A stretch of DNA of 64,000 bases. It comes from a virus. The DNA lies in the IMG/VR virus record IMGVR_UViG_3300029431_000104; one strand, given 5' to 3'. The translations under genes were made by a program, and so were the position numbers. The notes under the pieces are model-generated. The model did not search any database. It was not told the DNA's origin and saw nothing but the letters and a program-made list of their open reading frames with translations. This document shows, piece by piece, positions 3,854 through 19,648 of this stretch. Each line of letters opens with the position of its first letter. Positions within the stretch are counted from its first letter, which is position 1.

Positions 3854-3901
3854 ATGCCCTCTTTGGCTTTTTTTATTATGCGTCAAGGAGGTGGAACCCG
3901 T

Positions 3902-4483
3902 ATGGGGCGCAAGAAGAAAAATGCAAGACATAGCGTGCATGGTCGCAAGATTCATGTCAACAAGTACATCAATCAATGCGGAAAAACCAAGAAGTGCCGC
4001 AAGTCAGCAGTATCCTGGCGGCCGGCATCGAAAGAAACACCGTTTAATGATATGCCGACCTACCAGTGGCCGACTGTGAGAACCCCAAAACAGTATGAAG
4101 TCTGGTTCGCAGAGCTAGGCGATCACTCTGGCACTTCGGTGCAGAGCGGTACACGTCCAGTTCTGGTCATCAGCAATGACGTGGCGAATCGTAATTCCCC
4201 GGTCATTACAGTGATTCCGCTGAGTTCCAAGTTGAAGAAGCTGGAACTTCCGGTACACATCGTACTTACAGAAAAAGAGTGTGAGATGCTCAGGGATGAG
4301 CATTTGGAGGATTCCATCCTGCTGGTGGAGCAGATCACAACCATCGATAAGATGGTTCTGTTTAATCGGCTCTGCTATGTGGTCTCCGTTCAGAAGAAGT
4401 ACGAGATCGAAGCGGCTGTCACAAAGCAGTTTGCGATGCGGGCTTCAACACATGGTGCGAATTCTACGAGAAAGGAGGTCTGA
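3902..4483 (+). CDS. PemK/MazF-family endoribonuclease-like protein with N-terminal basic Cys/His extension
   Basis: Core YEVWFAELGDHSGTSVQSGTRPVLVISNDVANRNSPVITVIPLSSK matches the PemK/Kid/MazF signature (GEIW..LDPT.G.EQ.G.RPVLIV....VVPVTS). Strong RBS AAGGAGGTG sits before the ATG at 3902. An alternative start is the ATG at 4052 (core only). The N-terminal ~50 aa is K/R/H/C-rich (HSVHGRKIHVNKYINQCGKTKKC). Confidence 0.65.
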   Translation: MGRKKKNARHSVHGRKIHVNKYINQCGKTKKCRKSAVSWRPASKETPFNDMPTYQWPTVRTPKQYEVWFAELGDHSGTSVQSGTRPVLVISNDVANRNSPVITVIPLSSKLKKLELPVHIVLTEKECEMLRDEHLEDSILLVEQITTIDKMVLFNRLCYVVSVQKKYEIEAAVTKQFAMRASTHGANSTRKEV

Positions 4484-4488: not shown

Positions 4489-6900
4489 ATGGTGGATATC
4501 AAAAACATCCCGGCGGAGCTGAAGACCTCCTGCCGGTTTTGTGTCTGGAAATTTGAAAAGCGAAACGGTCAGAAGACCAAGATGCCGTATAACCCGGCGA
4601 ACGGTGACAGAGCAAAGATCAATGACCTCCGAACCTTTGCGGATTTCAAGACCACGCTTGTTACCTACGCGATGGGCGGCTATGATGGCATCGGCATTGC
4701 GGTTGGCAGTGGTATCGGAGCTTTCGACATCGACCACTGCATCCGGGAGGATGGTACGCTGAACGATACTGCGGACACTGTACTTTCGATCTTCCCTACA
4801 GCGTATGTAGAGAAGTCACCGTCCGGCAAAGGACTACGTGGATTCTTCCATGTGCCTGAAGACTACGTCTATGACAAGACGGTTTACTACATCAACAACC
4901 GCAGCAAAGGGCTGGAAGTGTATATGCCCGGTGCGACTAACCGCTTCGTTACCGTGACGGGAGATGTTTACCGCACAGGTGAGATCCCAAACGATGAAAC
5001 GGCAATGACCACTCTGCTGGACTCGCTGATGAAGCGAAATAAGCAGGTGCAGCAGACCCATTTCCAGCACCATTCATATCTGGATGACGAGGCTGTTATT
5101 GCACATGCCAATGAAGCCAGCAACAGTGAGAAGTTCAAAAGGCTGTTTGCCGGTGAGTGGGAAGACCTCTACGGCAGTCAGTCGGATGCAGATATGGCGT
5201 TCCTGTCTATTCTGGCATTCTGGTGCGGCTGTGATGAGGAGCAGATGGACCGCATCTTCCGCACATCTGGTCTGATGCGCCCGAAGTGGGATCGCAAACA
5301 GGCTGGTTCAACCTACGGTGCCATCTCTATCCGCAACACAGTCAATACCTGCGTTTCCGTTTACATTCCTGGCAACGCGCAGGACATTGTGGATGAGGAG
5401 TTTGCAAATCTTGACTCTGATGATAAAGAGGCGGAGCGGCCACCGGACATCAGCAAGCTCACGCTGTCGCTGGAAGAAATGGCTCCGCACACGAATCCGC
5501 GCTACGGCAGGGATGAGATCGGTTTGGGCAACATGTTCGCCGATTTTTTCAAGCCTATCGCACGGTACAACAGTGAACGCGGCATCTGGTTTGTCTATGA
5601 TGGAGTTGTCTGGCAGCCGGATATGGAGAACCTTAAGGTGGCAGAGCTTGCGAAATATCTGGCAGATAAGCTGTATCTGTTTGCATTGAAGATTACAGAA
5701 GAGGATGTCAGAAAGCGGTTCATCGACCGCGTCCGGAAACTCCAGCAACGCAAGCACCGTGACACGATGCTGAAAGACGCGAAGTCCGTATTCCCACTGT
5801 CCATGAAGCAGTACGATCAGGATATCTATCTGTTCAACTGCAAAAATGGAACACTGGATCTGCGGACGATGGAATTCCGGGAACACCGCCCGGAGGATTT
5901 TCTCACAAAAGTGTCCCCTGTGATATATGCCCCGGATGCCGACTGCCCTCGCTGGCGGACGTTCATCACGGAGATCATGCAGGGGGATAAGGCCAGAGCA
6001 GACTATCTTCAGAAGGCTATCGGATACTCGTTGACTGGTGACACCCGCATGGAGTGCTTGTTTATTCTGTACGGTCCGACATCCAGAAACGGTAAGGGTA
6101 CCACAATGGAGAGTATTCTGCGTATTATGGGCGAGTACGGTAAAAATGCAGATCCGACCATGCTGCAGGCGAAGTTTAACAGCCAGAGCGGAGGACCGTC
6201 TGAGGAAATCGCCCGGCTTGCCGGCTCTCGTTTTGTAAACATCTCCGAGCCGGAGAAAAAGATCACTCTGGATGCAGCTCTTACCAAACGACTGACCGGT
6301 AACGATACGATCACAGCCCGGTATCTGCATGAGAACAGTTTTGAGTTCCGACCGAACTTCAAAATTTTCATCAACACGAACCATCGTCCGAATATCACAG
6401 ACCTTACGCTGTTTGAGTCTGGCCGAATCAAAATCATTCCGTTTGACCGGCATTTTGAAGAAAATGAACAGGATAAGGATCTAAAGTCCACTTTTGCTAA
6501 ACCGGAAAATATGTCCGGCATTCTGAACTGGATGCTCGAAGGCTATAAGCTGTTCCGCAGTCAGGGACTTGCCATGCCGGATTCTGTCGTTCAGGCAACA
6601 ACGGACTATCAGATATTCTCAGATAAGATGGGTCAGTTTTTTGATGAATGCATTGAAGAAAAGGAAGGGTGTGAGCTTCGGCGCGGTGCAGTTTACACAC
6701 GCTACAAAGAGTGGTGTGGAGAGAATGGCTACCGGGCAGAGGCAGCCAAGAATCTAAACCAGGAGATTGAAAAGCGGTACAAGACTGCAAGAAAGCGTCC
6801 GAATGACGGTGCCTCCAGCAGTACGACTCCGATGGTCCTGGATGTGGCGTTCACGGCAAGTGAAGAGTCAAAAGAGGACTTTGCACCATTGACATCATGA
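4489..6900 (+). CDS. DNA primase/helicase (N-terminal prim-pol domain, C-terminal D5/P4-type NTPase)
   Basis: 803 aa; N-terminal bifunctional primase-polymerase-like region; P-loop LFILYGPTSRNGKGT; D5_N/PriCT-like middle region; RBS AAAGGAGGT. Confidence 0.85.
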   Translation: MVDIKNIPAELKTSCRFCVWKFEKRNGQKTKMPYNPANGDRAKINDLRTFADFKTTLVTYAMGGYDGIGIAVGSGIGAFDIDHCIREDGTLNDTADTVLSIFPTAYVEKSPSGKGLRGFFHVPEDYVYDKTVYYINNRSKGLEVYMPGATNRFVTVTGDVYRTGEIPNDETAMTTLLDSLMKRNKQVQQTHFQHHSYLDDEAVIAHANEASNSEKFKRLFAGEWEDLYGSQSDADMAFLSILAFWCGCDEEQMDRIFRTSGLMRPKWDRKQAGSTYGAISIRNTVNTCVSVYIPGNAQDIVDEEFANLDSDDKEAERPPDISKLTLSLEEMAPHTNPRYGRDEIGLGNMFADFFKPIARYNSERGIWFVYDGVVWQPDMENLKVAELAKYLADKLYLFALKITEEDVRKRFIDRVRKLQQRKHRDTMLKDAKSVFPLSMKQYDQDIYLFNCKNGTLDLRTMEFREHRPEDFLTKVSPVIYAPDADCPRWRTFITEIMQGDKARADYLQKAIGYSLTGDTRMECLFILYGPTSRNGKGTTMESILRIMGEYGKNADPTMLQAKFNSQSGGPSEEIARLAGSRFVNISEPEKKITLDAALTKRLTGNDTITARYLHENSFEFRPNFKIFINTNHRPNITDLTLFESGRIKIIPFDRHFEENEQDKDLKSTFAKPENMSGILNWMLEGYKLFRSQGLAMPDSVVQATTDYQIFSDKMGQFFDECIEEKEGCELRRGAVYTRYKEWCGENGYRAEAAKNLNQEIEKRYKTARKRPNDGASSSTTPMVLDVAFTASEESKEDFAPLTS

Positions 6901-6997
6901 GCTTGAAATTCAAGGTACGGACGGATTTGTTGCGGCTGTTGCTGGAAGAACACAGTGAAATCTATTGTTTTTGATTTTCATAAGTTCCCATCAAAAT

Positions 6998-7292
6998 ACC
7001 AGCAACACACGACTTCGGAGTCACGTTACCAGCAACAGCAGCAACGCCCCAGCAACAGAAAAACGTAGGAAAATCAAGGGTTTTCGGTGCTGTTGCGAGT
7101 GTTGCGAGTGAAAACCCTATTTTATTTATATTATTTTCTTTTATATACTATTTACTTTTTACTAGCAACAATAGCAACAAAAGAAAAAATATAGATCTTA
7201 ACACCCCTGAAAAGTGCGTAAAATCAATATTTTTGGGGACTGGACACCTCGCTTTGTGAGGAAAGCGCCAGCAACACACCAGCAACAGATTC
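6998..7292. repeat. iteron cluster plus AT-rich tract (candidate phage origin of replication)
   Basis: At least 8 copies of (C/T)AGCAACA (7000, 7030, 7036, 7050, 7165, 7174, 7269, 7280); tandem GTTGCGAGT x2 (7093-7110); AT-rich 7111-7200; immediately downstream of the primase. Confidence 0.5.
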
Positions 7293-7406
7293 AGAGGACA
7301 CATTGGAACTACACAATGGAACATCGCAGGCCGCTTTTGTGGGAGCCTATTTGTGGGCAAGGGCAAAGGCGGCTTGCTTTGTGATACATGAAAGAGAGGA
7401 CAGAAC

Positions 7407-8474
7407 ATGAGTAAGATTATCACCTGTGAACAGGTCAGCAATGGCCATCCTGATAAGATCTGTGACCAGATCGCAGATGCTATTGTGACCGACATTCTTC
7501 AGCATGACAGGCACGCCCGTGTGGCGATCGAGTGTCTGCTGAAAAAGAGCCAGCTCTTTATTGCCGGCGAGGTCACCACCGACTACCGGCCAAACTACAA
7601 CCAGATCGTCCATGATGTGTTCAATCGCATCGGCGCCGAAAAGCTGGGGTGGAACCTGACCGAGCTTCTTCGCATCGGCATTCTGGTGGACAAGCAGTCC
7701 CCGGACATTGCACTGGGTGTGGACAAGGGCGGTGCCGGTGACCAGGGCATCATGTATGGCTACGCCACCAACGAGACAGCAGAGCAGATGCCAATCCCGT
7801 ACATGGTTGCCACCAAGTTCCTGCAGCTGCTGAAGAACCATCCGTCCAAGATGTTCCGAGCAGATGCCAAGGCGCAGGTCAGCTACGATTACGACACCGG
7901 CCGAATCACCACCTTCCTCTGCTCCGTGCAGCACAGCCCGGATGTGGAGGTCAGCGACTTCCGGCATATCATCGAATCCATGATGGTGCTGGCCGCCTGC
8001 GAGTACGGTCTGGATGGTGACTTCACGAAGCTGGTTAATCCGACCGGTCGTTTCGTGCTGGGCGGCAGCTATGCTGACTGTGGTGTGACTGGCCGGAAGC
8101 TGGCGTGCGATACCTACGGTGGCATCGGTCGCATGGGTGGTGGTGCATTGAGTGGCAAAGACCCTACCAAGGTGGACCGCTCCGCAGCATACATGGCTCG
8201 GAAGATCGCCAAAGACATCGTGCAGGCGGGCTACGCTGACAAGTGCGAAGTCCAGCTGGCTTACGCCATCGGCGTGGTACAGCCAGTCGGTGTGTCGGTG
8301 GAGTGCTTCGGTACAGAGCACCAGTCCCTTGACTTCATCGAAGCCTACGTCCATGACAGCTACGACCTGACCCCGCAGGGTATCATCAAGCGGCTGGGAC
8401 TGCTGGATGTAGATTACAACAAGGTCAGTGCTTACGGTCACTTCGGCAAGGCTGGTCTTCCGTGGGAGGACTGA
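7407..8474 (+). CDS. metK: S-adenosylmethionine synthetase (methionine adenosyltransferase), phage-encoded
   Basis: N-terminal hallmark SNGHPDKICDQIADAI; GAGDQGIMYGYATNET; DAKAQVSYDYD; NPTGRFVLGGSYADCGVTGRKLACDTYGG; GGGALSGKDPTKVDRSAAY. These motifs are collinear with bacterial MetK over the whole length (355 aa). Confidence 0.9.
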   Translation: MSKIITCEQVSNGHPDKICDQIADAIVTDILQHDRHARVAIECLLKKSQLFIAGEVTTDYRPNYNQIVHDVFNRIGAEKLGWNLTELLRIGILVDKQSPDIALGVDKGGAGDQGIMYGYATNETAEQMPIPYMVATKFLQLLKNHPSKMFRADAKAQVSYDYDTGRITTFLCSVQHSPDVEVSDFRHIIESMMVLAACEYGLDGDFTKLVNPTGRFVLGGSYADCGVTGRKLACDTYGGIGRMGGGALSGKDPTKVDRSAAYMARKIAKDIVQAGYADKCEVQLAYAIGVVQPVGVSVECFGTEHQSLDFIEAYVHDSYDLTPQGIIKRLGLLDVDYNKVSAYGHFGKAGLPWED

Positions 8475-8477
8475 CCC

Positions 8478-8837
8478 ATGCCGTACAGACCAAAGACACC
8501 GTGCCGTCATCCCGGCTGCCCGGAGCTGGTGGAAGCCGGCCGGCTCTACTGTGAGAAGCACCTGCTTCTCCACCCGGAAGTAACCCGCCCGGCGGCGAAG
8601 CGTGGATACAACAGGCGGTGGCAGAAAGCCCGAAAGTCATATCTCGAAGCTCATCCGCTCTGTGTGCAGTGCGCCAAGCAGGGTAAGTACGTCCGGGCAA
8701 CGGTGGTGGATCACATCATTCCGCACCGTGGTGACCAGAAACTTTTCTGGGACCAGAACAACTGGCAGTCGCTCTGTAAGAGCTGCCACGATAAGAAGAC
8801 GCTGACCGAAGACATCAACCCGACCTACACCTACTGA
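8478..8837 (+). CDS. HNH endonuclease
   Basis: 119 aa; C-x2-C...VDHIIPH...N...LCKSCHDKKT (HNH ββα-Me motif with zinc ligands). Confidence 0.8.
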   Translation: MPYRPKTPCRHPGCPELVEAGRLYCEKHLLLHPEVTRPAAKRGYNRRWQKARKSYLEAHPLCVQCAKQGKYVRATVVDHIIPHRGDQKLFWDQNNWQSLCKSCHDKKTLTEDINPTYTY

Positions 8838-9237
8838 CACTCCCACCGGGGCCGGGGTCACTTCTCTACAGTGAAGTCACACGAAGACCGGTGCGCCCTT
8901 TTCTGTGAAAAACCGCAAAATTCATAGGCCGGGGGTCAGAGGAATAACGACGCAAAATGAAACAGGAAAATGTACAGGCATCGGAGCTTCGGTTCCGGTG
9001 CCATTCTTTTTCCCCGAAATGAACCAAAGTGTGTGAAACCTCTCGTAAACAGGGAGCTTTCGCACATTTTAGCTTGTTCCGGGAGGAGCAGGGGCGAGCG
9101 GGAATCGGCCGTCGCAACAACGATCCAACCTGGCGGGGCAGTGCCGATTTCAACTTCGCTGCTTTTCGTATGTATTTTGAAATTTTTCTAAGAAACCGCC
9201 GAAGAAACGGCGAAAAATGAGAGTGAGGTGAGGGCAG

Positions 9238-9558
9238 ATGGAAGATTACACGGCTGAGATGATTAGGGACATGGCTTTTTCCTTCTGCCCTCAGTGCGGT
9301 ACGGCAATCGTACCAAACCATAAAGGCAGACCACGGAAGTTCTGCTCACCGGAATGCCGGTCACGGTGGAACAACACCCATCCAAAGCCGGAGAACTGGA
9401 AGACCGTGCGGTCGAAGATCTGCCCGGTGTGCGGCAGGGAGTTTTCCTACCGGCACCAGTATGGTCTGGAACGGAAATATTGCAGCCGTGCCTGTGCAAA
9501 CAAAGGACGCTGGAAGGAGGGCGATGCAAATGGAAGAACCGCTGAACATAGAACGTAA
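9238..9558 (+). CDS. double zinc-ribbon protein
   Basis: 106 aa; two CxxCG-x16-18-CSxxCR units (CPQCG...CSPECR; CPVCG...CSRAC). Confidence 0.5.
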   Translation: MEDYTAEMIRDMAFSFCPQCGTAIVPNHKGRPRKFCSPECRSRWNNTHPKPENWKTVRSKICPVCGREFSYRHQYGLERKYCSRACANKGRWKEGDANGRTAEHRT

Positions 9559-10024
9559 TGTGGTAAAGAACGGTGTCCGGCTGGACTGTGTGTTTGAGGG
9601 CTATGAGTACCGCCCGGAGAGGGAAGAAGTCCGAAGCCAGCGGCTTGCCGGGTTTGAATGTGTGGAGATCGCAGAAAACACCGGGTTGTCTTTGGAACAG
9701 GTCACGGATTACTGTCGGGAACTGGGTCTGCCGGAAACGGGGAGCTGCCAGTTACAGCCGTCGGATGGGTCGAGGGAACGGCACTGTCCGGTTTGTGGAC
9801 GCATTCTCGTGCAGAGAGGGAACAGTGGTCGGAGACGGTTCTGTTCTCCTGAGTGCCGGGAGGAATATTACAGGCAGCATAAGTCTTTTAGGATCGCGGT
9901 CTGTAAAAACTGTGGAAGGGAGTTCCATGCCGTAGATGAAGGAAAACGGCAGCGGAAGTTCTGCAGTCTGAATTGTTACTGGGATTATCGATACGGGATG
10001 AAGGGAGTGGATGAGGATGAGTAA
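9524..10024 (+). CDS. HTH (sigma-70 region-4-like) plus double zinc-ribbon protein
   Basis: The ORF track lists 9461; the ATG at 9524 after GGAAGGAGGG is preferred. Residues FECVEIAENTGLSLEQVTDYCRELGL resemble an HTH. Two ribbons follow: CPVCG...CSPECR and CKNCG...CSLNC. It is a paralog of the preceding gene. Confidence 0.5.
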   Translation: MQMEEPLNIERNVVKNGVRLDCVFEGYEYRPEREEVRSQRLAGFECVEIAENTGLSLEQVTDYCRELGLPETGSCQLQPSDGSRERHCPVCGRILVQRGNSGRRRFCSPECREEYYRQHKSFRIAVCKNCGREFHAVDEGKRQRKFCSLNCYWDYRYGMKGVDEDE

Positions 10025-10235
10025 GATTATCGGTGTGTTTCCGATGTTCAACACCGGGGGTATCTGTGTACATGCGATTGACGATGCGGAAGATAAGGTC
10101 CTGGCATCCGTGAACGGGGAAAACCCGGAATGGTACGAGATGGCTGAACATCCGCAGGAAGATGGAGATGAGATGGAGTCGGGCTTTTTGTTCGGCTCCT
10201 TTTTCGTGCCGTTCTCCGGGGTCATGCGCATGTGA
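10011..10235 (+). CDS. small hypothetical protein
   Basis: 74-aa ORF overlapping the previous stop; acidic, with a hydrophobic C-terminus; weakly supported. Confidence 0.3.
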   Translation: MRMSKIIGVFPMFNTGGICVHAIDDAEDKVLASVNGENPEWYEMAEHPQEDGDEMESGFLFGSFFVPFSGVMRM

Positions 10236-10256
10236 ATCTGAATTAGGAGGGCTTAC

Positions 10257-11525
10257 ATGAAAGCGACTGCTGAACTGAAGATGCTGCCGGTGTCCGTACT
10301 CAAGCCGGCCGCATACAATCCCCGGAAAAAGCTGAAGCCGGGGGATAAAGAGTACGAGAAGATCAAGAACTCCATCACGGAGTTCGGGTTCGCAGATCCT
10401 TTGGTGGTCAATGCCGACATGACGATCATCGGCGGCCACCAGAGACTGACTGTTGCAATGGAACTGGGCTATACCGAAGTGCCTTGTGCGGTGGTGGACA
10501 TCGACAAGACCAGGGAAAAAGCCCTGAACATTGCGCTCAACAAGATCACGGGTGCATGGGATGATTCCCTGCTGGCTGATCTTTTGAAGGACATCGAAGA
10601 TTCCAACTTCGACCTTGGCAAGACCGGCTTTGAGCCGCCGGAGATTGAGACCCTGTTCAACAAGGTCCACAGCAAGGAGGTCAAGGAAGATGACTTTGAT
10701 GTGGAATCCGAGCTGAAACAGCCATGCTTCTCCAAAGAGGGCGACCTCTGGCATCTGGGTAAGCACATCGTTCTGTGCGGGGATTCCACCAAAGCGGAAT
10801 GCTATGACACCCTGATGGACGGAACCAAGGCAAATCTGGTCCTTTCCGATCCCCCTTATAACGTGGATGTGGAAGAGACTGCCGGTAAGATCATGAATGA
10901 CAACATGGGCGATTCGGAATTCTACCAGTTCCTTCTGGCAGCGTTCCAGCAGATGCACGGCCATCTTGCAGACGACGGTTCCATCTACATCTTCCATGCA
11001 GATACGGAAGGGCTGAACTTTAGAAAGGCATTCAAGGATGCCGGGTTCTACCTGTCCGGGTGCTGTATCTGGAAGAAGAATGCGCTGGTGCTGGGCCGTA
11101 GTCCTTACCAGTGGCAGCACGAGCCGTGTCTTTACGGCTGGAAGCAGAAGGGAAAGCACCAGTGGTATTCCGACCGGAAGCAGACGACCATCTGGGAGTA
11201 CGACCGGCCGAAGTCCAACAAGGACCATCCGACCATGAAGCCCATCGGCCTGATGAGCTATCCGATCCGCAACTCTACTATGACCAACGGCATCGTCCTC
11301 GATCCGTTCCTGGGCAGCGGCTCGACCCTGATCGCCTGTGAGGAGACCGACCGTGTGTGCCGGGGCATCGAGTTGGACCCGAAGTTCGTGGATGTGATCG
11401 TGAAGCGGTACATCGAACACAGCGATGGTCACTACGATGATGTGTATGTCATCCGTGACGGCCAGAAGCTGAAGTTCGAGGAAGTGGCGACCTTCGAGCC
11501 GGAAAGCGAGGATGCCGATGCCTGA
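10257..11525 (+). CDS. ParB-like nuclease domain / DNA methyltransferase (N6-adenine or N4-cytosine type) fusion
   Basis: N-terminal ParB-N motif (LKPAAYNPRK...GGHQRL); methylase motif IV LSDPPYNVDVEE; motif I DPFLGSGSTLIA; RBS GGAGGG. Confidence 0.85.
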   Translation: MKATAELKMLPVSVLKPAAYNPRKKLKPGDKEYEKIKNSITEFGFADPLVVNADMTIIGGHQRLTVAMELGYTEVPCAVVDIDKTREKALNIALNKITGAWDDSLLADLLKDIEDSNFDLGKTGFEPPEIETLFNKVHSKEVKEDDFDVESELKQPCFSKEGDLWHLGKHIVLCGDSTKAECYDTLMDGTKANLVLSDPPYNVDVEETAGKIMNDNMGDSEFYQFLLAAFQQMHGHLADDGSIYIFHADTEGLNFRKAFKDAGFYLSGCCIWKKNALVLGRSPYQWQHEPCLYGWKQKGKHQWYSDRKQTTIWEYDRPKSNKDHPTMKPIGLMSYPIRNSTMTNGIVLDPFLGSGSTLIACEETDRVCRGIELDPKFVDVIVKRYIEHSDGHYDDVYVIRDGQKLKFEEVATFEPESEDADA

Positions 11526-12291
11526 TGTAAAATGCGTCCTCATCCATGACAACTTCCAGAATTTCAAGTCCTATAACATCCCCAAGGCGCAGCTGGTGAT
11601 CGCAGACATTCCGTACAACATCGGTACAGATTTCTATGCCAGCCGGCCGGACTGGTATGTGGATGGCGACAACAAAAACGGGGAGAGTAGCAAGGCGCGG
11701 AAGGCGGCATTCAATACCGATTTCACCTTCAACATTGCAGAGTATTTCCACTTCTGCAACCGCCTGCTGAAGAAAGAACCCGGCACAGGAGAGAAGGATG
11801 CGCCGTGCATGATCGTGTTCTGTGCGTTTCAACAGATCCCGAAGGTGATCACCGAAGCAGAGAAATACGGTTTCAAGAATTATATCCCGCTGGTGTTTTG
11901 CAAGAACTACAGTCCGCAGGTTTTAAAGGCCAACATGAAGATCGTGGGTGCAACGGAGTATGCTCTGGTTCTGTACCGGGGAAAGCTCCCGAAGTTCCGT
12001 AATCTCGGTGAGGACGGAAAGCCCCATATGATCTTCAACTGGTTTGACTGGAAGCGGGATGGCAGGGAATATCCGAAAATCCATCCTTCCCAGAAACCGA
12101 TCTCCGTGCTGAAACGACTGATCGAGACCTTTACAGATGAGGGCGATGTGGTCATTGACCCCTGCGCCGGCAGCGGCTCCACGCTGAGAGCAGCAAGAGA
12201 ACTGGGGCGCAACAGCTACGGATTTGAAGTATCCAGAGACTTTTACCAGAAAGCAAATGAGCAGATGCTCGGAGAGGAGGTCGCCGGATGA
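11512..12291 (+). CDS. DNA methyltransferase (N6/N4 family, second copy)
   Basis: 259 aa; motif IV-like IADIPYN; motif I VIDPCAGSGSTLRAA; overlaps the upstream gene by 14 nt. Confidence 0.8.
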   Translation: MPMPDVKCVLIHDNFQNFKSYNIPKAQLVIADIPYNIGTDFYASRPDWYVDGDNKNGESSKARKAAFNTDFTFNIAEYFHFCNRLLKKEPGTGEKDAPCMIVFCAFQQIPKVITEAEKYGFKNYIPLVFCKNYSPQVLKANMKIVGATEYALVLYRGKLPKFRNLGEDGKPHMIFNWFDWKRDGREYPKIHPSQKPISVLKRLIETFTDEGDVVIDPCAGSGSTLRAARELGRNSYGFEVSRDFYQKANEQMLGEEVAG

Positions 12292-14546
12292 GCACAGAAC
12301 AGAATAAGACTTTGACCCTCGGCAGCCTCTTTGATGGCTCCGGGGGTTTTCCATTGGGCGGTCTGTTGACCGGGCAGATCACTCCGGTGTGGAGCAGCGA
12401 GATCGAGCCGTTTGCCATCCGGGTCACGACCAAACGTCTGCCGCAGGTGAAGCACTACGGAGATGTGTCTGCCATCAGCGGAGCAGACCTGCCTCCAGTG
12501 GACATCATCACTTTTGGGAGTCCCTGTCAGGATATGTCCATCGCCGGTAAGCGGGACGGTCTGGATGGTTCACGGTCCAGTCTGTTTTACGAAGCAATCC
12601 GAATCGTGAAGGAAATGAGGTGTAAGACCAATGGAGAAAAACCAAGATTTATCGTGTGGGAGAATGTGCCAGGGGCCTTCTCCTCAAACAAAGGGCAGGA
12701 CTTCAAAGCAGTCCTCGAAGCCGTCATCGGTGTTAAAGAACCGGCCGCCTCGGTGCCTGCGCCTGAGAAGAAAGGATGGCCCGATGCCGACTACTATGTG
12801 GGAGACGGATGGAGCGTCGCGTATCGAGTTCTTGATGCACAGTGGTGGGGCGTTCCCCAAAGAAGAAAACGTATCTACCTTGTCGCAGATTTTGCAGACC
12901 AGAGTGCCCCAAAGGTACTATTTGAGTCCGAAGGCGTGTCTCGGTATTCTGCGGAGGGCTTCCGTGCGTGGCAAAGAGCTGCCGCCGGTGCTGAAAGCGG
13001 CACTGGAGAGGCAGGCTGTAACGGAGCAGGAGGACGGATCTGTCTGAACGACCAGGGCGGCAGGCAGATGGATGTTTCCAAAGATGTGACCGGAACCCTA
13101 CGGGCAGAGGAGCATGGGCATCAGCCGTGTGTTCTGGAAGCCGCCGGTTTTTGTACCGAGCATTCCGCAGATGCCAGAAGCATCGGATACGAGGAAGAGC
13201 GGTCACAGACCCTCCGAGCTGGTGTTGTGCCTGCCGCCATCGCACTGGAGAATCATCCTGCTGACAGCCGGGTGAAGATTTCCGAGGACGGTAAGGTGCA
13301 GACACTGACAAGCCGGTGTGGTACGGGTGGCGGCAATGTCCCGATGGTCATGGATGCTGTTGAAAATTCAGTGGAAAGCTCGGTGAAAGATGTTGAAAAC
13401 TCCCCGGCAGTCACACTGAAAATTCGCTCCGGTTGCGAGGGCGGCGGGAAGGGAGCCATCTGGCAGGAAGAAAAGTCGGCCACCCTCGGCTGCAACAACG
13501 ACCAGACACTGTTCGTTCCGAAATGCTATGGCGTCTGTTCCAAAGTCAGCCATTCCATGATGTCCGATAATCCGCACAGCGGTTTTTATGAGGCCGAAAC
13601 TTCCCGGACACTGGACCGCAGCGGCGGTGACCCGACCTGCAATCAGGGCGGTATCTGTGTGGTAGAGCCGGTCGCCTTTACCCAGAACCAGAGGGATGAA
13701 GTCCGGGATCTTGGAGAAAAGTCAGCGGCACTGGCAGCAGATCCAGGGATGAAGCAGCAGACCTTTGTGGCACAGCCGGAAGATGTGACAGTCTTCCATG
13801 TGAACCAGCGCAATGAGCTGATCGATCTGCATGGTAAGTCCGGCGCTTTGATGGCGACCCGGAGTGACCAGATGCAGACCTTCGTCCTGCAGGGCAACAT
13901 GATCGGCCGCAAGGATGAGAACGGTCCGCAGGGGGATGGTGTCAATGAGGATGTCTGCTTTACACTGGATGCCACTGACCGCCATGCAGTCTGCGCACCG
14001 GAGGATGTGTATGCCATGACCACCGGCTCCTATATGCAGGTGGCAAAAGAAGTCGCACCGACCCTGATGGCACGGGATTACAAAGACCCGACCACCATCG
14101 CACCGGTACCGCATTTGAACGAGGGTGTCATGGGAACGGTGGCAACCGGGGCACATCCCAGCGGCTTCAACGGGCAGGATGCTTTCAATGACCGTCTGGT
14201 CATCGACAATCCGGAAGCACAGCCCGCACCTGTGACCTATACAGTTCGCCGTTTGACACCGACCGAGTGTGCCAGACTGCAGGGCTTCCCAGACTGGTGG
14301 TGCAGAGACCTCGGAACGGAAGACCCGACCGAAGAAGAGCTGGCATTCTGGGCAGATGTGTTTGAAACGCACCGTAAGATCGTGACCCATGCCAAGAAGC
14401 CGAAAACGGAGAAGCAGATCCGGAAATGGCTGGCTGACCCGTATACGGATTCGGCCGAGTACCGTATCTGGGGCAACGGCATTTGCTTAGCCAACGCATT
14501 CTTTGTTCTGGCCGGCATCGCATGGTGTGCAGGTCTGGAAGAATAA
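12288..14546 (+). CDS. DNA (cytosine-5)-methyltransferase, large (752 aa) with extended variable region
   Basis: Motif I LFDGSGG; motif IV GSPCQDMSIAG; motif VI ENVPG; C-terminal motif IX/X RRLTPTECARLQGFPD; a ~450-aa variable/target-recognition region suggests a multispecific enzyme. Confidence 0.85.
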   Translation: MSTEQNKTLTLGSLFDGSGGFPLGGLLTGQITPVWSSEIEPFAIRVTTKRLPQVKHYGDVSAISGADLPPVDIITFGSPCQDMSIAGKRDGLDGSRSSLFYEAIRIVKEMRCKTNGEKPRFIVWENVPGAFSSNKGQDFKAVLEAVIGVKEPAASVPAPEKKGWPDADYYVGDGWSVAYRVLDAQWWGVPQRRKRIYLVADFADQSAPKVLFESEGVSRYSAEGFRAWQRAAAGAESGTGEAGCNGAGGRICLNDQGGRQMDVSKDVTGTLRAEEHGHQPCVLEAAGFCTEHSADARSIGYEEERSQTLRAGVVPAAIALENHPADSRVKISEDGKVQTLTSRCGTGGGNVPMVMDAVENSVESSVKDVENSPAVTLKIRSGCEGGGKGAIWQEEKSATLGCNNDQTLFVPKCYGVCSKVSHSMMSDNPHSGFYEAETSRTLDRSGGDPTCNQGGICVVEPVAFTQNQRDEVRDLGEKSAALAADPGMKQQTFVAQPEDVTVFHVNQRNELIDLHGKSGALMATRSDQMQTFVLQGNMIGRKDENGPQGDGVNEDVCFTLDATDRHAVCAPEDVYAMTTGSYMQVAKEVAPTLMARDYKDPTTIAPVPHLNEGVMGTVATGAHPSGFNGQDAFNDRLVIDNPEAQPAPVTYTVRRLTPTECARLQGFPDWWCRDLGTEDPTEEELAFWADVFETHRKIVTHAKKPKTEKQIRKWLADPYTDSAEYRIWGNGICLANAFFVLAGIAWCAGLEE

Positions 14547-14678
14547 ACTGGCCCGCTATATTACTAGGTAGAAAGCGACCTGTTGATATGGTGGGCTTAC
14601 ATATTGGTCCTATTTACACAACAGATTTTGCGGCCCCTTGTGTAAATGGTCGAACATGAAGAATATCGGGAAATGGCC

Positions 14679-14709
14679 TTGCTATTCATCCGTTTTAGAG
14701 TGATATATG
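14679..14709 (+). promoter_or_regulatory. degenerate copy of the repeated early promoter
   Basis: CCTTGCTAT ... TGATATATG ... ACCGAAAAG shares the -35 TTGCTA and the ACCGAAAG leader with the 16111-22984 promoter family. Confidence 0.35.
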
Positions 14710-14769
14710 TGCTACCGAAAAGAACATCGGGATGCACAAAAACAAATGAACGAAAAGGAGCGATGAATT

Positions 14770-15954
14770 ATGTTGAAATTTAAACTGAACGTAGCCGAGA
14801 GAAAGACCCTCGCAAAACGCATGGAGGAGCTGACCGGCATCCACCCTTACTATACCAAAGCACCTCTGTATTCTTACGACATCGGGAGCTACACCATCGA
14901 CCGGAATGGCAACCTTCTGGTCGAGCCGGAGAATGCAGATGCCGAGCTGCTGACGACCCTGCTGAATGAGGGACTGATCCGCGGCGGCGAGAGTATTGAG
15001 AGTACGGATGACCAGCCGGAGGACACAGAGCTGACAGCGGATATGGATGAGGAGCCTGTGACCGAAGCGGAAACTGAGCAGATGCCCGAAGCAGAGCTGG
15101 AGGTTCTGGACGAGCAGGAATCCGAAGATGCAGATACCGCAGAAGATGAACCTGCGGAAGCAGGAGCCGAGGATGCATTGGAGCCGGACAATACGGCTGA
15201 GGATGATACCATAGAGGATGAGCCGGATGCAGAATCGCAGGAGACAGAAGATCAGCCGGAAGAGGTGCCGCTGGACTTGGAACTTGCATTCCCGGTCAGC
15301 CAGCACAACGGTGTGACTCTCCGCAACCTGGTCAACCTTCTTTACAGCCGCGGCAAGCTCATCGGCAAGGCGACTGGAGGACACTTCCATGTGGAAGAGG
15401 GGCTGGTCGAGAAGCTGAAGGACGATAGCTGCACCTTTGCCATCATGAACTTCATCAATGCGGTCAGCGACTATGAGACTGAACATGGTGCTGCACTGGA
15501 AGGCCTGAAAATCACCACCGAGAAGGTCACCTTTACCGGCTTCCCGACTGCACCGGACCACGAACATCTGACGGCTTTTGCACAGCTGGCGGTGCTGATG
15601 AACCAGCAGGCTATCAGCCAGAAGCGCATCCAGGCAAAGGATGTCAACGATGAGAATGAGAAATACTCACTCCGCACATGGCTCCTGCGGCTGGGGATGA
15701 ACGGTCCGGATTTCAAAGAGACACGCAAGATCCTCATGGAGAACCTTTCCGGCCATGCGGCTTTCCGCACGGATGAGGAAGCACAGAAGTTCCTTGCAAG
15801 GGAAAAGGCAAAACGGGATGCCCTGAAAGCCGCGAAACTGGCGGCACAGAACGGCGATCCTGCCACAGGGGAAACGGTCGCACCGGATACGACCCGGCCG
15901 ACACAGCCCGACTGTGGGGCAGACATGGCGCAGATGCTGGAGGCGGGAGCGTAA
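14770..15954 (+). CDS. divergent amidoligase-like paralog (probable pseudoenzyme) with ~100-aa poly-acidic insert
   Basis: 394 aa. Its N-terminus (NVAERKTLAKRMEELTG) aligns to the amidoligase NITREKAARKVAEYFGT. GGHFHVEEG aligns to GCGVHIHIG, KVTFTGF to GTIEFRLF, and the C-terminal NEKYSLRTWLLRLGMNGPDFKETRKILMENLSGHAAFR to NEKYAMRCWMLRLGFIGDEFATAREILLRNMEGNASWR. The catalytic E-x-E and E/R positions are replaced. Residues 85-190 are almost entirely D/E. Confidence 0.6.
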   Translation: MLKFKLNVAERKTLAKRMEELTGIHPYYTKAPLYSYDIGSYTIDRNGNLLVEPENADAELLTTLLNEGLIRGGESIESTDDQPEDTELTADMDEEPVTEAETEQMPEAELEVLDEQESEDADTAEDEPAEAGAEDALEPDNTAEDDTIEDEPDAESQETEDQPEEVPLDLELAFPVSQHNGVTLRNLVNLLYSRGKLIGKATGGHFHVEEGLVEKLKDDSCTFAIMNFINAVSDYETEHGAALEGLKITTEKVTFTGFPTAPDHEHLTAFAQLAVLMNQQAISQKRIQAKDVNDENEKYSLRTWLLRLGMNGPDFKETRKILMENLSGHAAFRTDEEAQKFLAREKAKRDALKAAKLAAQNGDPATGETVAPDTTRPTQPDCGADMAQMLEAGA

Positions 15955-16110
15955 GCTCCCAATCCCCCAATGGGGGCCGGAAAATATGCGAGACCCTCTT
16001 CCATTGTACCGATATTAGCTCTGAAAATGTACATTATCAAGCGGATAAACTGCAGAAATGTACACGATCATTCTGCCTTATATTTGTCGAATATATGTTC
16101 TTTTATATCC

Positions 16111-16139
16111 TTGCTATTATCCGCACCTGACGGTAATAT
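16111..16139 (+). promoter_or_regulatory. repeated early promoter copy (TTGCTA-17-TAATAT) driving the amidoligase operon
   Basis: TTGCTA 16111-16116, 17-nt spacer ending TGACGG, TAATAT 16134-16139; leader CACATACCGAAAGGGAAAAC; same element as the 20248-22984 copies. Confidence 0.6.
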
Positions 16140-16186
16140 GCACATACCGAAAGGGAAAACAAGGAAAAAACAAAGGAGAACATACC

Positions 16187-17125
16187 ATGAACGATAAAAC
16201 AAGAGAGCAGATTGAAGCCATGAAGAACCAGACCATCGGAGTTGAGATTGAGATGAACAACATCACCAGAGAAAAAGCGGCAAGAAAGGTCGCCGAGTAC
16301 TTCGGAACCAGAGCATGGAACGCCGCCGGCGAGTACGGATATTACAGCTGGGCTTGCAAGGATGGACAGGGCAGGGTTTGGAAATTCCAGAGGGATGTGA
16401 GCATCTACGGACCGGACGCAGAAAAATGCGAACTGGTCACCCCGATCCTCACCTACGACGACATCGAAACCTTGCAGGAAATCATCCGGCTGCTCCGAAA
16501 GGCAGGCGCAAAGAGCGGCCCAAGCCGCGGATGCGGAGTCCACATTCACATTGGCAAAGGCGACCACACCGCAAAGACCATCCGCAACCTTGTGAACATC
16601 ATGGCGGCGCACGAACAGCAGATCGGCAGAGCCATCCGGATCGATGCAGGGCGCACCGGACAATATTGCCAGGTGGTCAACCATCGCTTCCTCGACCGGC
16701 TGAACCGCGAGAAGCCGACCACCATGCACAGGCTGGAAGACATCTGGTACGAAGGCAACGGTTCCAGCTGGGAAAACCGGAATGCCCACTACAATTCAAG
16801 CCGGTACCATATGCTGAACCTCCATGCCACCTTTACAAAAGGGACCATTGAATTCCGCCTTTTCCAATTCGCAGACCCAGCGGACGGAAAGCGCAACGGA
16901 CTGCACGCCGGTGAGATGAAAGCCTATATCCAGCTTTGCCTCGCAATGAGCCAGCTTGCCAAGATGGTCAGGACGGCAAGCCCAAAGCCCCAGCAGACCG
17001 ACAATGAAAAGTATGCGATGCGGTGCTGGATGCTGAGGCTGGGATTCATCGGGGATGAATTTGCAACGGCAAGGGAAATCCTTCTGCGGAACATGGAGGG
17101 CAACGCATCCTGGCGGAACAAATAA
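16187..17125 (+). CDS. amidoligase (Amidoligase_2 / glutamine-synthetase-like fold)
   Basis: 312 aa starting at an internal ATG after the AAAGGAGAA RBS. GS-like motifs are present: GVEIEMN (E-x-E), GCGVHIHIG (H-x-H) and GTIEFRLF (E, R). Iyer et al. 2009 described this family in phages and conjugative elements. Confidence 0.8.
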   Translation: MNDKTREQIEAMKNQTIGVEIEMNNITREKAARKVAEYFGTRAWNAAGEYGYYSWACKDGQGRVWKFQRDVSIYGPDAEKCELVTPILTYDDIETLQEIIRLLRKAGAKSGPSRGCGVHIHIGKGDHTAKTIRNLVNIMAAHEQQIGRAIRIDAGRTGQYCQVVNHRFLDRLNREKPTTMHRLEDIWYEGNGSSWENRNAHYNSSRYHMLNLHATFTKGTIEFRLFQFADPADGKRNGLHAGEMKAYIQLCLAMSQLAKMVRTASPKPQQTDNEKYAMRCWMLRLGFIGDEFATAREILLRNMEGNASWRNK

Positions 17126-17192
17126 GCCGGGATGCACGGGCACCTTTTGGGCGGGCAACCGCCCTTGAGGTGGTAGAAGGAGGTGCAGGTTT

Positions 17193-17429
17193 ATGAAAAG
17201 CACGTTAAAAAATGAAAACACACCGGGTGGCAGAACCTTTAAGGTGACCATCACCGAGACCTACCAGAGAACGGTGACCATTTATGAATCCGAGATGAAA
17301 GAGCCGACCGTGGAGGAAGCACAGCGTGTGGCAGAGGACTGGTGGCAGGACAGCCAGATCGAGCTTGGGACAGAGGATTTCCAGGGCGTGGAATTCACTG
17401 GCAGGGAGGACGGTGAGGCAGATGTTTGA
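17193..17429 (+). CDS. small acidic protein (78 aa) co-transcribed with amidoligase/GGCT
   Basis: Strong RBS GAAGGAGGTG; C-terminus ...FTGREDGEADV; overlaps the GGCT start by 8 nt (translational coupling). Confidence 0.5.
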   Translation: MKSTLKNENTPGGRTFKVTITETYQRTVTIYESEMKEPTVEEAQRVAEDWWQDSQIELGTEDFQGVEFTGREDGEADV

Positions 17430-17943
17430 GTTGATCAGCCGAGTCCCATCCAGATATTATCTTGCCTACGGAAGCAACCTCGACATGGAGCGGATGGGAA
17501 AGAGATGCCCCTACGCTGTGGTGGTCGGCACGACCGAGATCAAGGGCTACCGGCTCCTGTTCAAAAAGAGCAAGACCGGCTGCTATGCCACCATCGAGCA
17601 GGATGCCAATGAAAGCGTACCAGCGGTGGTCTGGAAACTCTCGGAATACGATGAGCTCCTGCTGGACCGGTACGAGGGATGCCCAAGATACTATTACAAG
17701 AAGCAGTTCCAGCTTCAGGTCTGGAACCTGAACGGGAACCGCATGAAAAAGGCAAAGCCCTGCATCGCTTATGTGATGCACGAGGACCGGCGGCTTGGCT
17801 GCCCGGATGCCGAGTATTTTGAACTGCTGCAGGGCGGATACAGCGACTGGGAGTTTCCGCTGGACACACTGAAGCGTGGACTGGCAGCCAGTATCGGAAG
17901 GGCGGAAGCCATCCGGTATCTGAAGAAGCGGCAGATGATGTAA
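17422..17943 (+). CDS. gamma-glutamyl cyclotransferase-like protein (GGCT/AIG2 family), copy 1
   Basis: YYLAYGSNLDMERM...YEGCPRYY: AIG2/GGCT signature YxxYGSN and a downstream Glu; 173 aa from the ATG at 17422. Confidence 0.8.
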   Translation: MFELISRVPSRYYLAYGSNLDMERMGKRCPYAVVVGTTEIKGYRLLFKKSKTGCYATIEQDANESVPAVVWKLSEYDELLLDRYEGCPRYYYKKQFQLQVWNLNGNRMKKAKPCIAYVMHEDRRLGCPDAEYFELLQGGYSDWEFPLDTLKRGLAASIGRAEAIRYLKKRQMM

Positions 17944-18073
17944 GAGTACACGATCAAAAGCAAAAAACATTGTGCAGTATATGATGCTCATCGGCCTTGA
18001 TAAATCAGGGCAGAAGAGTGATATATACCATACCGCCAGACAAGAGCGGAGAAAACCGAAGGGAGAGATTCAA

Positions 18074-18553
18074 ATGAAGAACAAGAAATATTACATCGCC
18101 TACGGCAGCAACCTGTCGGTGGAGCAGATGGCAGACCGATGCCCGGATGCAAAAATTGCAGGGCAGGCGGTGCTGGCCGGCTGGGAGCTTTTGTTCCGCG
18201 GCTGCGCCACCATCGCACCGAACCCGAAGAAGAACACGCCGGTTCTGGTGTGGGAGATCTCGGAAAGGGACGAAGGAAACCTCGACCTCTATGAGGGCTA
18301 CCCGAACTACTACCGCAAGGAAGATCTGAACATCGAACTGCTCCGGGAAAGGGCAGAGCCGGAGATGGTGACCGCAATGGTCTACATCATGGAGAACGAC
18401 TTCGGACGCCGCTCACCGAGCCGGTATTACTACAAAGTCCTGCATGACGGCTACAAGGCATTCCACTTCCCGATGCACATCCTCGAAGGTGCGCTGAAGG
18501 AATGCATGGATAAGGATGCCGCCCAGCGGATGATCGAGGAGGTGCAGGCATGA
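18074..18553 (+). CDS. gamma-glutamyl cyclotransferase-like protein (GGCT/AIG2 family), copy 2
   Basis: YYIAYGSNLSVEQMADRCP...LYEGYPNYY; paralog of 17422-17943; ATG at 18074 after GAAGGGAGAG. Confidence 0.8.
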   Translation: MKNKKYYIAYGSNLSVEQMADRCPDAKIAGQAVLAGWELLFRGCATIAPNPKKNTPVLVWEISERDEGNLDLYEGYPNYYRKEDLNIELLRERAEPEMVTAMVYIMENDFGRRSPSRYYYKVLHDGYKAFHFPMHILEGALKECMDKDAAQRMIEEVQA

Positions 18554-19017
18554 ATTTCGCAGATAAGAAAACGGTCGAGAAGCTGAGAAAAGAGTTCCCG
18601 GTCGGATGTCGGATCGTCCTCGATGAGATGGATGACAGGCAGGCACCGACCATCGGAACGCAGGGAACCTGCAACGGGGTCGATGATGCCGGAAACATTT
18701 TAGTGAGCTGGGATACCGGAAGCCATCTAAACGTTGCCTACGGCGCGGACAGTTGCCACCGTGTGGCAACGGATGCCGAGGTCAAGGTGTCGCTCGACCG
18801 GCTTGGTAAAACGCGACAGACCGGCCCACGTTGCCCCAGGTGCGGAGCAAAGCCCGACTGCTACGACCATCAGCAGCAGGCACTCAGCCGAAGGGCGGAC
18901 ATCCAGATCTGCAACCGCTGCGGAACGGAGGAAGCGTTAGAGGACATTGCATGGGGCGGACAGCAGAAGATGCATCTTGCAGACTGGGCAATCGTGAAAG
19001 GAGGCTGGGTCGAATGA
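18550..19017 (+). CDS. DUF4314-like protein with C-terminal zinc ribbon
   Basis: LRKEFPVGCRIVLDEMDD.QAPTIGTQGTCNGVDDAGNILVSWDTGSHLNVAYG matches the DUF4314 signature found in phage/ICE accessory regions; C-terminal CPRCG...CNRCG. Confidence 0.55.
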   Translation: MNFADKKTVEKLRKEFPVGCRIVLDEMDDRQAPTIGTQGTCNGVDDAGNILVSWDTGSHLNVAYGADSCHRVATDAEVKVSLDRLGKTRQTGPRCPRCGAKPDCYDHQQQALSRRADIQICNRCGTEEALEDIAWGGQQKMHLADWAIVKGGWVE

Positions 19018-19385: not shown

Positions 19386-19456
19386 GATACCGCAATCAGA
19401 AAAATACCCTCTCGGCCAGAAAAGACCGGGAGGGCTTAGTTTAACAGGAGGAGCCT

Positions 19457-19648
19457 ATGGGACACAGAAAGATGCCGGCTTATGGCGAGAGGGAACACGG
19501 CGGCAGATACATTCTGGATGAATACGAATGGTCAAGAAACCACTGCAAGGCGGTGACCATCCGCAGATGGAAAAGGGACCTGAAAAAGAAAGCCAGAGCG
19601 CATAACCGCAGGGTGATGCATCAGGCAATGCAGGGCGAGGTCGATTAG
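19457..19648 (+). CDS. small basic protein (63 aa)
   Basis: Strong RBS AGGAGGAGCC, ATG at 19457; K/R-rich; function unknown. Confidence 0.4.
   Translation: MGHRKMPAYGEREHGGRYILDEYEWSRNHCKAVTIRRWKRDLKKKARAHNRRVMHQAMQGEVD

Follow-up and report, generated by a model that had tools for sequence, protein, structure and literature searches.

What is a gene for S-adenosylmethionine (SAM) synthetase doing in a phage genome, beside a row of DNA methyltransferase genes? The question is raised by the IMG/VR virus record IMGVR_UViG_3300029431_000104, a stretch of 64,000 nucleotides (nt) that was analysed as a whole (hereafter, the window) and that contains, at positions 7407-14546, metK, an HNH endonuclease gene and three DNA methyltransferase genes. 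An initial annotation, made from the sequence alone, had proposed that the phage brings its own SAM supply in order to methylate its own DNA against restriction. In this work, we compare the locus with its relatives and with published systems. With moderate confidence, we interpret metK as an auxiliary SAM booster for late phage self-methylation.

The product of 7407-8474 matches all three Pfam families of SAM synthetases, S-AdoMet_synt_N (PF00438, 1.9e-25), S-AdoMet_synt_M (PF02772, 1.6e-24) and S-AdoMet_synt_C (PF02773, 1.5e-55), each above its gathering score and together spanning residues 4-354. Against TIGR01034, the NCBIfam equivalog model of metK, it scores 393.1 bits, where the cut-off is 309.4. 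The protein aligns end to end with Escherichia coli MetK (PDB 7ll3, 312 bits). In this alignment, all 16 of the residues that we take to be catalytic or ligand-binding (in E. coli numbering, H14, D16, K17, E42, E55, Q98, D118, D163, K165, F230, D238, R244, K245, K265, K269 and D271) are identical, in the window protein as well as in MetK of Streptococcus phage Javan55. The gene is thus the MetK that the initial annotation took it to be, and the four motifs quoted there are all found in the translation. The protein also matches phrog_1569 (5e-134, profile positions 2-345 of 346), a family that PHROGs labels 'unknown function'.

At 355 amino acids (aa), the window MetK is 29 residues shorter than the 384-aa E. 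coli enzyme. Five residues are missing beside the active-site gating loop, where DRADPLEQ is replaced by DKG, and the other losses are two small deletions in the central domain and the C-terminal tail. All four deletions are also present in Javan55 MetK, which argues that they are a trait of the clade (PHROG 1569) and not a sign of decay. Among 50 distinct metK alleles from related contigs, the median ratio of nonsynonymous to synonymous substitution rates (dN/dS) is 0.057 (1215 pairs). Judged in this way, metK is intact and under purifying selection, and SAM-synthetase activity is predicted for its product.

Apart from a few short-form Clostridia enzymes, every sampled cellular MetK is at most 49% identical to the phage clade. 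A 352-aa short-form MetK that is 59% identical to the phage enzyme is encoded on the chromosome of Oribacterium parvum ACB1 (L087:7998-9056), between TrkH/TrkA and an oxidoreductase and with no phage genes within 8 kb. The short-form deletions are therefore not exclusive to phages, and this case suggests that a short-form MetK may work as a cellular enzyme. Two kinds of record were discarded: P0001 and P0010, whose MetK is unusually long, stem from chimeric assembly or duplication, and the Helicobacter records of 'phage metK' are host genes flanking prophage integration sites.

The neighbourhood of metK and its relatives

The features of the block and of the region upstream of it are as follows.

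987-2363, + strand: SNF2 helicase, upstream of metK
3854-4483, + strand: PemK/MazF-like protein, upstream of metK
4489-6900, + strand: D5-type primase-helicase, upstream of metK
7407-8474, + strand: metK, short-form methionine adenosyltransferase of 355 aa (phrog_1569; Pfam, TIGR01034)
8478-8837, + strand: HNH endonuclease of 119 aa, probably of the packaging-associated type (PF01844)
8838-9237, + strand: non-coding element of 400 nt, conserved in relatives, whose hairpin (8977-9002) is terminator-like
9238-9558, + strand: Zn-ribbon protein 1, 106 aa (phrog_2308, 'unknown function'; Zn-ribbon Pfam matches below threshold)
9524-10024 (listed open reading frame 9461-10024), + strand: Zn-ribbon protein 2 (phrog_2308, 9e-23)
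10011-10235, + strand: open reading frame of 74 aa, with no Pfam or PHROG match
10257-11525, + strand: ParB-N domain fused to a beta-class N6/N4 methyltransferase, 422 aa (PF02195 and PF01555)
11512-12291, + strand: second beta-class N6/N4 methyltransferase, 259 aa (PF01555, 1.6e-24)
12288-14546, + strand: C5-cytosine methyltransferase, 752 aa (PF00145, TIGR00675)

The long open reading frames (ORFs) of the region are all on the + strand, and the HNH gene and the three methyltransferase genes lie where the initial annotation had placed them, each with Pfam support. Close relatives of the window MetK occur on 401 IMG/VR stretches, and 80 loci were fetched for a comparison of gene order. Down to 73% MetK identity, and on at least 70 related contigs, the genes run SNF2 - primase - MetK - HNH - Zn-ribbon - 74 aa - ParB-methyltransferase - (N6 methyltransferase) - C5-methyltransferase - 394-aa protein - amidoligase. 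This order is found also in Javan55, in a Streptococcus cristatus prophage and in NatCom_18656, at 55-61% MetK identity. Linkage conserved to this extent speaks for a functional connection of the methyltransferases with SAM synthesis. By comparison, none of about 70 bacterial-genome loci whose MetK is 42-49% identical, and which were taken as cellular metK, has the neighbours of the module.

In an annotated phage collection, MetK was found in 139 records, about 90 of which are Streptococcus prophages (55-57% identical) that annotate the protein as S-adenosylmethionine synthetase. In Javan55, the order is primase/helicase - helicase - MetK - HNH - adenine methylase - cytosine methylase - small and large terminase subunits (TerS/TerL), and the identity to the window is 58% for MetK, 55% for HNH, 67% for the ParB-methyltransferase and 77% for TerL. 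NatCom_18656 has MetK (61% identical) - HNH - methylase - amidoligase - gamma-glutamyl-cyclotransferase (GGCT) - terminase. Its TerL is 83% identical over the part fetched, and those of NatCom_991 and NatCom_28274 are 64-65% identical. Note that the MetK orthologue of NatCom_18656 (L082, PV036428.1, 32730-33776) is annotated as 'peptidase' and that the HNH gene after metK is left unannotated in Javan55 (MK448802.1), so that counts of the module based on annotation are underestimates.

A smaller protein occupies a similar place in other relatives. NatCom_991, an Acutalibacteraceae phage (PV036413.1), encodes a 275-aa mini MetK-like protein (L222:6497-7324) with 26% identity to the window MetK. 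Of the Pfam domains, it has a detectable match to the N-terminal one alone, although equivalents of HPDK, GDxG, DxK, D238, RK, GKD and KxD are kept. The end of its gene is the start of the ParB-methylase gene. The family to which it belongs (260-282 aa) is very abundant in metagenomes, with at least 8000 candidates, and the protein goes by 'S-adenosylmethionine synthetase' in one nr record, whereas the phage record calls it 'hypothetical protein'. In a Clostridium difficile prophage, Tn6164, the order is HNH - TerS - SAM synthetase - N4/N6 methylase - amidoligase - AIG2, and the genes for the synthetase and the methylase overlap (PMC3485107).

Neither the arrangement nor the idea behind it is new: both are already in print for orthologous phages, and the lineage has been catalogued. 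The Streptococcus pyogenes prophage phi1207.3 (orf23-orf33) has a D5 primase, an SNF2 helicase, a 353-aa SAM synthetase, a 121-aa HNH protein, ParB and a DNA methylase, a C5 methylase, TerS/TerL, a portal, a Clp protease and three serine recombinases, and its authors proposed that methyl groups for the C5 methylase may come from the synthetase (Iannelli 2014, PMC4260502). The window has the same gene set and order as phi1207.3 and the Javan prophages. It differs from them in its host phylum branch and GC content, in the second N6/N4 methylase, which they lack, and in the C5 enzyme, which has the normal 388 aa in these prophages and 752 aa with about ten modules resembling target recognition domains (TRDs) in the window. 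In addition, the loci of Javan55 and the S. cristatus prophage have no detectable homologue of the amidoligase, and their terminase genes come within about 2.5 kb after the methylases.

At a larger scale, metK and dcm have been recorded together in two surveys. Among Ca. Heliusvirales, which, like the window phage, are human-gut Clostridia phages (a widespread and mostly temperate lineage), K00558 (dcm) occurs in 67% and K00789 (SAM synthetase) in 58.9% of genomes; both are counted as auxiliary metabolic genes, and the module itself is not analysed (de Jonge 2024, PMC11283538). Among members of this lineage, NatCom_18656 has MetK, HNH, the ParB-methyltransferase, the amidoligase and TerL in the order of the window, while NatCom_991 and others have in common with the window a large C5 enzyme including the variable region; NatCom_991 differs in that HNH is followed by TerS and the 275-aa gene replaces the 355-aa form. 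The other survey found viral metK to be widely distributed and expressed, with dN/dS below 1 and substrate-binding motifs kept, to cluster apart from bacterial MetK, and to occur together with dcm on individual viral genomes, among them those of Streptococcus suis phages (Kieft 2021, bioRxiv 10.1101/2021.01.05.425418). It reads metK as serving methionine degradation and sulfide production, not methyl-donor supply for phage DNA.

Methyltransferases, HNH nuclease and non-coding element

The C5 enzyme matches PF00145 in three stretches separated by a large insert, and also matches TIGR00675. Motifs I (FDGSGG), IV (PCQ, aa 79-81), VI (ENV, aa 125-127) and VIII (QRRKR, aa 191-195) lie within aa 14-195, and motifs IX (RRLTPTE..QGFP, from aa 654) and X (GNG, aa 729-731) within aa 654-731. 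The variable region between them comprises 458 aa (aa 196-653, nt 12873-14246) and contains 11 xTL/xAL motifs at a spacing of about 30-45 aa, which corresponds to about ten TRD-like modules; the comparison of motifs presumes the classical TRD consensus. Orthologues in related contigs are 617-821 aa long and are set apart by five separate indels of 30-45 aa, each with an xTL/xAL motif (length and cassette variants from loci L021, L026, L044, L062, L066, L069 and L079), which suggests that methylation specificities may shuffle fast within the lineage.

The enzymes of the Bacillus phages SPR, phi3T, rho11s and H2, as well as M.BssHII, described by the Trautner laboratory, likewise have one catalytic core and, between motifs VIII and IX, a greatly enlarged region in which modules of about 40 aa, each bearing a motif of the T-L type, stand in tandem, and the Bacillus-phage enzymes likewise gain and lose modules between related phages. 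The likeness of this tandem-module architecture supports the initial annotation in calling the window enzyme probably multispecific. The classical multispecific C5 enzymes have three or so specificities, compared with the ten or so modules seen here. However, the Bacillus modules have no detectable sequence homology to the variable region. When this region was compared by tblastn with 50,697 phage records, all matches were in gut Clostridia phages, where they are mostly annotated 'hypothetical protein', and none was in a Bacillus phage. The enzyme therefore resembles the classical family, but descent from it is not shown.

Such an enzyme bears on how much SAM is needed. In its first 55 kb, the window has 475 CCGG, 366 GCNGC, 275 GATC, 112 GGCC and 103 GCGC sites. 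Because typical 4-5-bp motifs occur in hundreds of copies and the C5 enzyme with its ten or so modules acts beside two amino-methylases, the SAM demand of the methyltransferases is plausibly high: we estimate that thousands of methyl groups would be needed per genome copy and 1e5-1e6 per burst, which is about the size of the bacterial SAM pool (roughly 1e5 molecules).

The two other methyltransferases belong to the amino-methyltransferases, and their nearest solved relatives are DpnA, CcrM and N4-cytosine methyltransferases. Their PF01555 domains match at 4e-28 and 1.6e-24. The ParB-fused enzyme has the motif SDPPY, matches phrog_498 (1e-187) and the PADLOC MTase_II model PDLC03229 (570 bits, with no cognate nuclease), and is 67-68% identical to its orthologues in Javan55, the S. 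cristatus prophage and NatCom_18656. The second enzyme, with the motif ADIPY (DIPY), is an optional cassette, absent from about 20 otherwise collinear loci (e.g., L001, L006, L016 and L017). When ten proteins of the block were scanned with PADLOC, no restriction-nuclease model matched any of them, and the C5 enzyme matched the 'orphan methyltransferase' model PDLC03715 with 927 bits. Because no nuclease model matches in the block, its methyltransferases are classed as orphans on the strength of these models, and a type II restriction-modification (R-M) system was rejected.

The HNH gene follows metK in the same frame, with only TGA-CCC before its ATG (8472-8480), and this junction is kept in most relatives. 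In one metagenomic contig, the TGA is changed to a Cys codon, which yields a genuine MetK-HNH read-through fusion of 476 aa (variant P0003). The HNH protein matches PF01844 (5e-10) and the 'HNH endonuclease' families phrog_144 and phrog_2323, and there is also a match to a PHROG of terminase small subunits. Its sole PDB match is 5H0M (8e-14), an HNH endonuclease from Geobacillus phage GVE2. In the window, the TerS/TerL genes are found some 15 kb further downstream; the HNH gene is directly before a TerS-like gene in NatCom_991, NatCom_28274 and the Tn6164 prophage, and in the relatives with this HNH-TerS order it stands behind a regulator resembling DUF1492 or sigma-70 region 4. No restriction-enzyme model matches the protein in the PADLOC scan; there are weak matches to the ZorE and PtuB HNH models (E about 4e-4). 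The HNH protein that was initially placed within the modification block is thus present there, but its most likely role is in DNA packaging, as a terminase-associated enzyme of the HK97 gp74 / GVE2 type rather than a restriction enzyme. The coupling of such a packaging-type gene to metK is a hint that metK may be expressed late.

Between the HNH gene and the methyltransferase genes lies a non-coding element (8838-9237), which keeps a length of 397-402 nt in about 50 distinct relatives while the HNH protein falls to 70% identity. It folds better than shuffled sequences (z = -4.1), with 16 predicted pairs showing compensatory changes, and its hairpin of 11 pairs (8977-9002) is terminator-like and followed by a T run. 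No Rfam family matches the element. Its 5' core of about 100 nt, which is recognisable in Javan55, the S. cristatus prophage and NatCom_18656, contains the blocks TCTCTA, AGACCG and CGCAAAATT and G runs. A single RNA structure for this core was rejected: the three blocks are invariant and the flanking stems are not, so that a DNA site bound by a protein is no less likely than an RNA. Candidates for the element are a cos/pac-type site beside the packaging HNH gene or a leader RNA for the methylase genes.

The interval also contains the two Zn-ribbon ORFs and the 74-aa ORF. Zn-ribbon protein 1 is syntenic in relatives; Zn-ribbon protein 2, which has repeated CxxC...FCSxxC motifs and for which the internal ATG at 9524 is a more likely start than the listed 9461, varies more than its neighbours; and the 74-aa ORF is at the same place in most related loci. 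What the initial annotation described as a compact metK-methyltransferase block accordingly holds as a conserved gene neighbourhood, but with the hairpin element of 400 nt and these ORFs intervening it is not demonstrably one uninterrupted operon.

Interpretation of the metK-methyltransferase block

The block would be the DNA-modification section of a temperate Lachnospiraceae phage of the phi1207.3-like or Ca. Heliusvirales-like type. In the infected cell, MetK would make SAM from ATP and methionine, and the three methyltransferases (the ParB-fused N6/N4 enzyme, the optional N6/N4 enzyme and the multi-module C5 enzyme) would consume this SAM to methylate the phage DNA at many motifs while it replicates and before it is packaged, so that the progeny would be protected against restriction in the next host. 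metK would be expressed late, in step with the packaging HNH gene, and would be an accessory booster of the methyl-donor supply and not an obligatory part. Comparative data make a supply of SAM for self-methylation, as first proposed, the most plausible purpose; they do not make metK indispensable.

Several observations weigh against this interpretation. In Ruminococcus phage NatCom_28274, the ParB-methylase is present together with a C5 methylase of 742 aa, but there is no metK within 21 kb. Phage metK is therefore dispensable for the methylase set, and from such comparisons it appears as an optional add-on to a conserved methylase module. FP_Brigit has a long-form metK with no annotated methylase adjacent. 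About 41% of Ca. Heliusvirales were scored without K00789 (PMC11283538), though some of these may carry the divergent mini MetK-like form. In the window, the element with the strong terminator-like hairpin parts metK and HNH from the methylases, so that the two groups may not be co-transcribed. Literature searches found no study that measured how a phage metK affects DNA methylation of the phage or its evasion of restriction. The sole deletion of a phage metK that was found concerns the group B Streptococcus (GBS) prophage 12/111phiA, in which metK likewise adjoins an endonuclease gene, with a 1-nt gap: deletion of the endonuclease-metK region reduced aggregation, glycocalyx and biofilm, and plasmid-borne metK restored these phenotypes in part (Renard 2021, PMC8223999). 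That study scored host phenotypes, not methylation of phage DNA or evasion of restriction, and its complementation was imperfect.

We also put forward, tentatively, a narrower version that we think unlikely. MetK, in the 355-aa form or the previously uncharacterised mini form of 260-280 aa, would be a dedicated partner of the ParB-fused methyltransferase, co-translated and perhaps physically coupled with it, so that SAM is made where the ParB-anchored and C5 enzymes hyper-methylate DNA during packaging; metK would then be limiting only through that load.

The GBS phenotypes are the reason for giving real weight to a different explanation, less probable than the SAM booster by our assessment, in which metK is an auxiliary metabolic or lysogenic-conversion gene, acting in methionine and sulfur metabolism or on the cell surface and biofilm, and its proximity to the methylases is historical. 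Besides the 12/111phiA deletion and the partial rescue by plasmid metK, this explanation can draw on the survey of Kieft 2021, in which viral metK is widespread, expressed and under purifying selection as a gene of organosulfur auxiliary metabolism, and on the hairpin that parts metK-HNH from the methylases. It sits less well with the position of metK, which is within the replication/late-gene region on the same strand as its neighbours and not, as a moron would be, near recombinases or lysis genes; with its translational coupling to a packaging-type HNH gene; and with the recurrence of a MetK or MetK-like gene beside the ParB-methylase in relatives that are arranged differently.

Another possibility is that the short MetK sustains SAM synthesis under attack, by the SAM lyase of a rival phage or by a host defence, or escapes feedback control, with methylation as one beneficiary. 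That attacks on the host SAM supply do occur is clear from phage T3, whose SAM lyase is reported to cleave SAM and to inhibit its synthesis, and which by destroying SAM evades Type I R-M and bacteriophage exclusion (BREX) systems (bioRxiv 10.1101/2023.02.27.530186). The distance of the phage clade from the sampled cellular enzymes, and the deletions of five residues by the gating loop and of the C-terminal tail, could be taken in the same sense, but the chromosomal short form in Oribacterium means that the deletions are not a phage-specific adaptation. Moreover, neither the window nor the host flank yielded an identifiable SAM-targeting system and no SAM-depleting defence was found in literature searches, while Type I R-M and BREX, the best-documented SAM-dependent defences, require SAM to restrict, so that extra SAM is not obviously helpful to the phage. 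We regard this possibility as improbable, and nothing supports the initial suggestion that MetK counters defences that deplete or sense SAM. T3 does resemble the proposed booster in that a phage manipulates the host SAM pool in dealing with restriction-type defences; it removes SAM, however, where the window phage would make it, and there is no sequence relationship (bioRxiv 10.1101/2023.02.27.530186).

Two further explanations are less probable still. No more than 2 kb separates the nuclease gene from methylase genes on the same strand, the HNH protein has its weak ZorE and PtuB matches, and HNH-family restriction enzymes exist; it might thus be argued that HNH and the methyltransferases form a phage-borne R-M or addiction system with MetK as the supplier of its cofactor. 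A nuclease of only 119 aa, whose sole solved relative is 5H0M and whose gene is immediately followed by TerS in relatives, is an unpromising restriction enzyme; it matches no restriction model, the C5 enzyme is of the orphan type, and three methylases of many specificities could not be paired by one small nuclease. We consider such a system very improbable. Least probable of all, and barely credible, is that metK is a decaying or non-catalytic passenger: its 29 missing residues and the 'unknown function' of its PHROGs family are set against catalytic residues that are all kept, a score beyond the equivalog cut-off, a dN/dS of 0.057 across the 50 alleles and the lack of any frameshifted metK among the close relatives examined.

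The phage, its host and the wider window

The window also encodes TerS, TerL, a portal, a ClpP-type protease, an HK97-type capsid, a tape-measure protein, an endolysin and three large serine recombinases. The terminase, portal, capsid, tape-measure, endolysin and recombinase genes mark it as a temperate phage of siphovirus type (HK97-like). Clostridium fessum SNUG30386, which belongs to the Lachnospiraceae of the human gut, harbours a prophage that has the whole module with a MetK that is 99% identical, and the window phage is taken as a prophage of this species. By TerL homology and common gene order, the phage is placed in the phi1207.3 / Javan / Ca. Heliusvirales lineage. The recombinases (786, 766 and 610 aa) lie within 50169-59987, where GC is lower (about 0.45) and an AAA_25 ATPase gene stands between them; their number equals the 'three resolvases' of phi1207.3.

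A second conserved cargo block (14770-23448) lies between the methylases and the terminase. It includes an acidic protein of 394 aa, with a match to the amidoligase PHROG phrog_2443 and a C-terminal motif in common with the neighbouring Amidoligase_2 protein (16058-17125), two GGACT/AIG2-like (gamma-glutamyl-cyclotransferase-like) proteins, DUF4314, DUF3846 and, at 22587-22871, a protein with the 'nucleotide modification associated' domain Nmad4. An amidoligase and an AIG2/GGCT gene also follow the methylase genes in the C. difficile Tn6164 prophage and the NatCom phages.

Upstream of metK, the intergenic region 6901-7406, between the primase-helicase gene and metK, contains at least eight copies of CCAGCAACA / TGTTGCTGG in both orientations, flanking an AT-rich stretch at about 7120-7200. 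Several IMG/VR contigs break in this intergenic region, which resembles iterons with an unwinding element and is a candidate replication origin of the phage. A SAM riboswitch upstream of metK or the methylases was considered and rejected: RNA-family scans of the whole window gave no known RNA upstream of these genes at gathering thresholds, and permissive scans of 6880-7430 and 8800-9260 gave chance-level matches only. A sigma-70 promoter scan of 6800-16100 gave no sites on the + strand; since such sites are rarer here than in shuffled sequences, the scan is uninformative. In positions 1-55000, several palindromes fall below Markov expectation (CTAG 0.24, ACGT 0.43, GGCC 0.46 and CGCG 0.47) while CCGG, AGCT and TCGA are at expectation, and at least the twelve lowest-ranked 6-bp palindromes are wholly absent. 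This scarcity is consistent with restriction-site avoidance acting beside methylation.

To what has been published on these phages, the window adds a well-resolved example from an abundant human-gut lineage, a comparative case for metK being optional, and a C5 enzyme whose modules suggest many more specificities than those of the classical multispecific phage enzymes. This many-module methylase, the abundant mini MetK-like family and the conserved non-coding element after HNH are the less explored parts of the module. If the phage MetK does limit self-methylation, its strategy would be the mirror image of that of the T3 SAM lyase, and metK would give easy genetic access to the way in which temperate gut phages get past the restriction barriers that separate strains; better models for this are the orthologous streptococcal prophages, whose hosts are far easier to manipulate than a host of the Clostridium fessum type.

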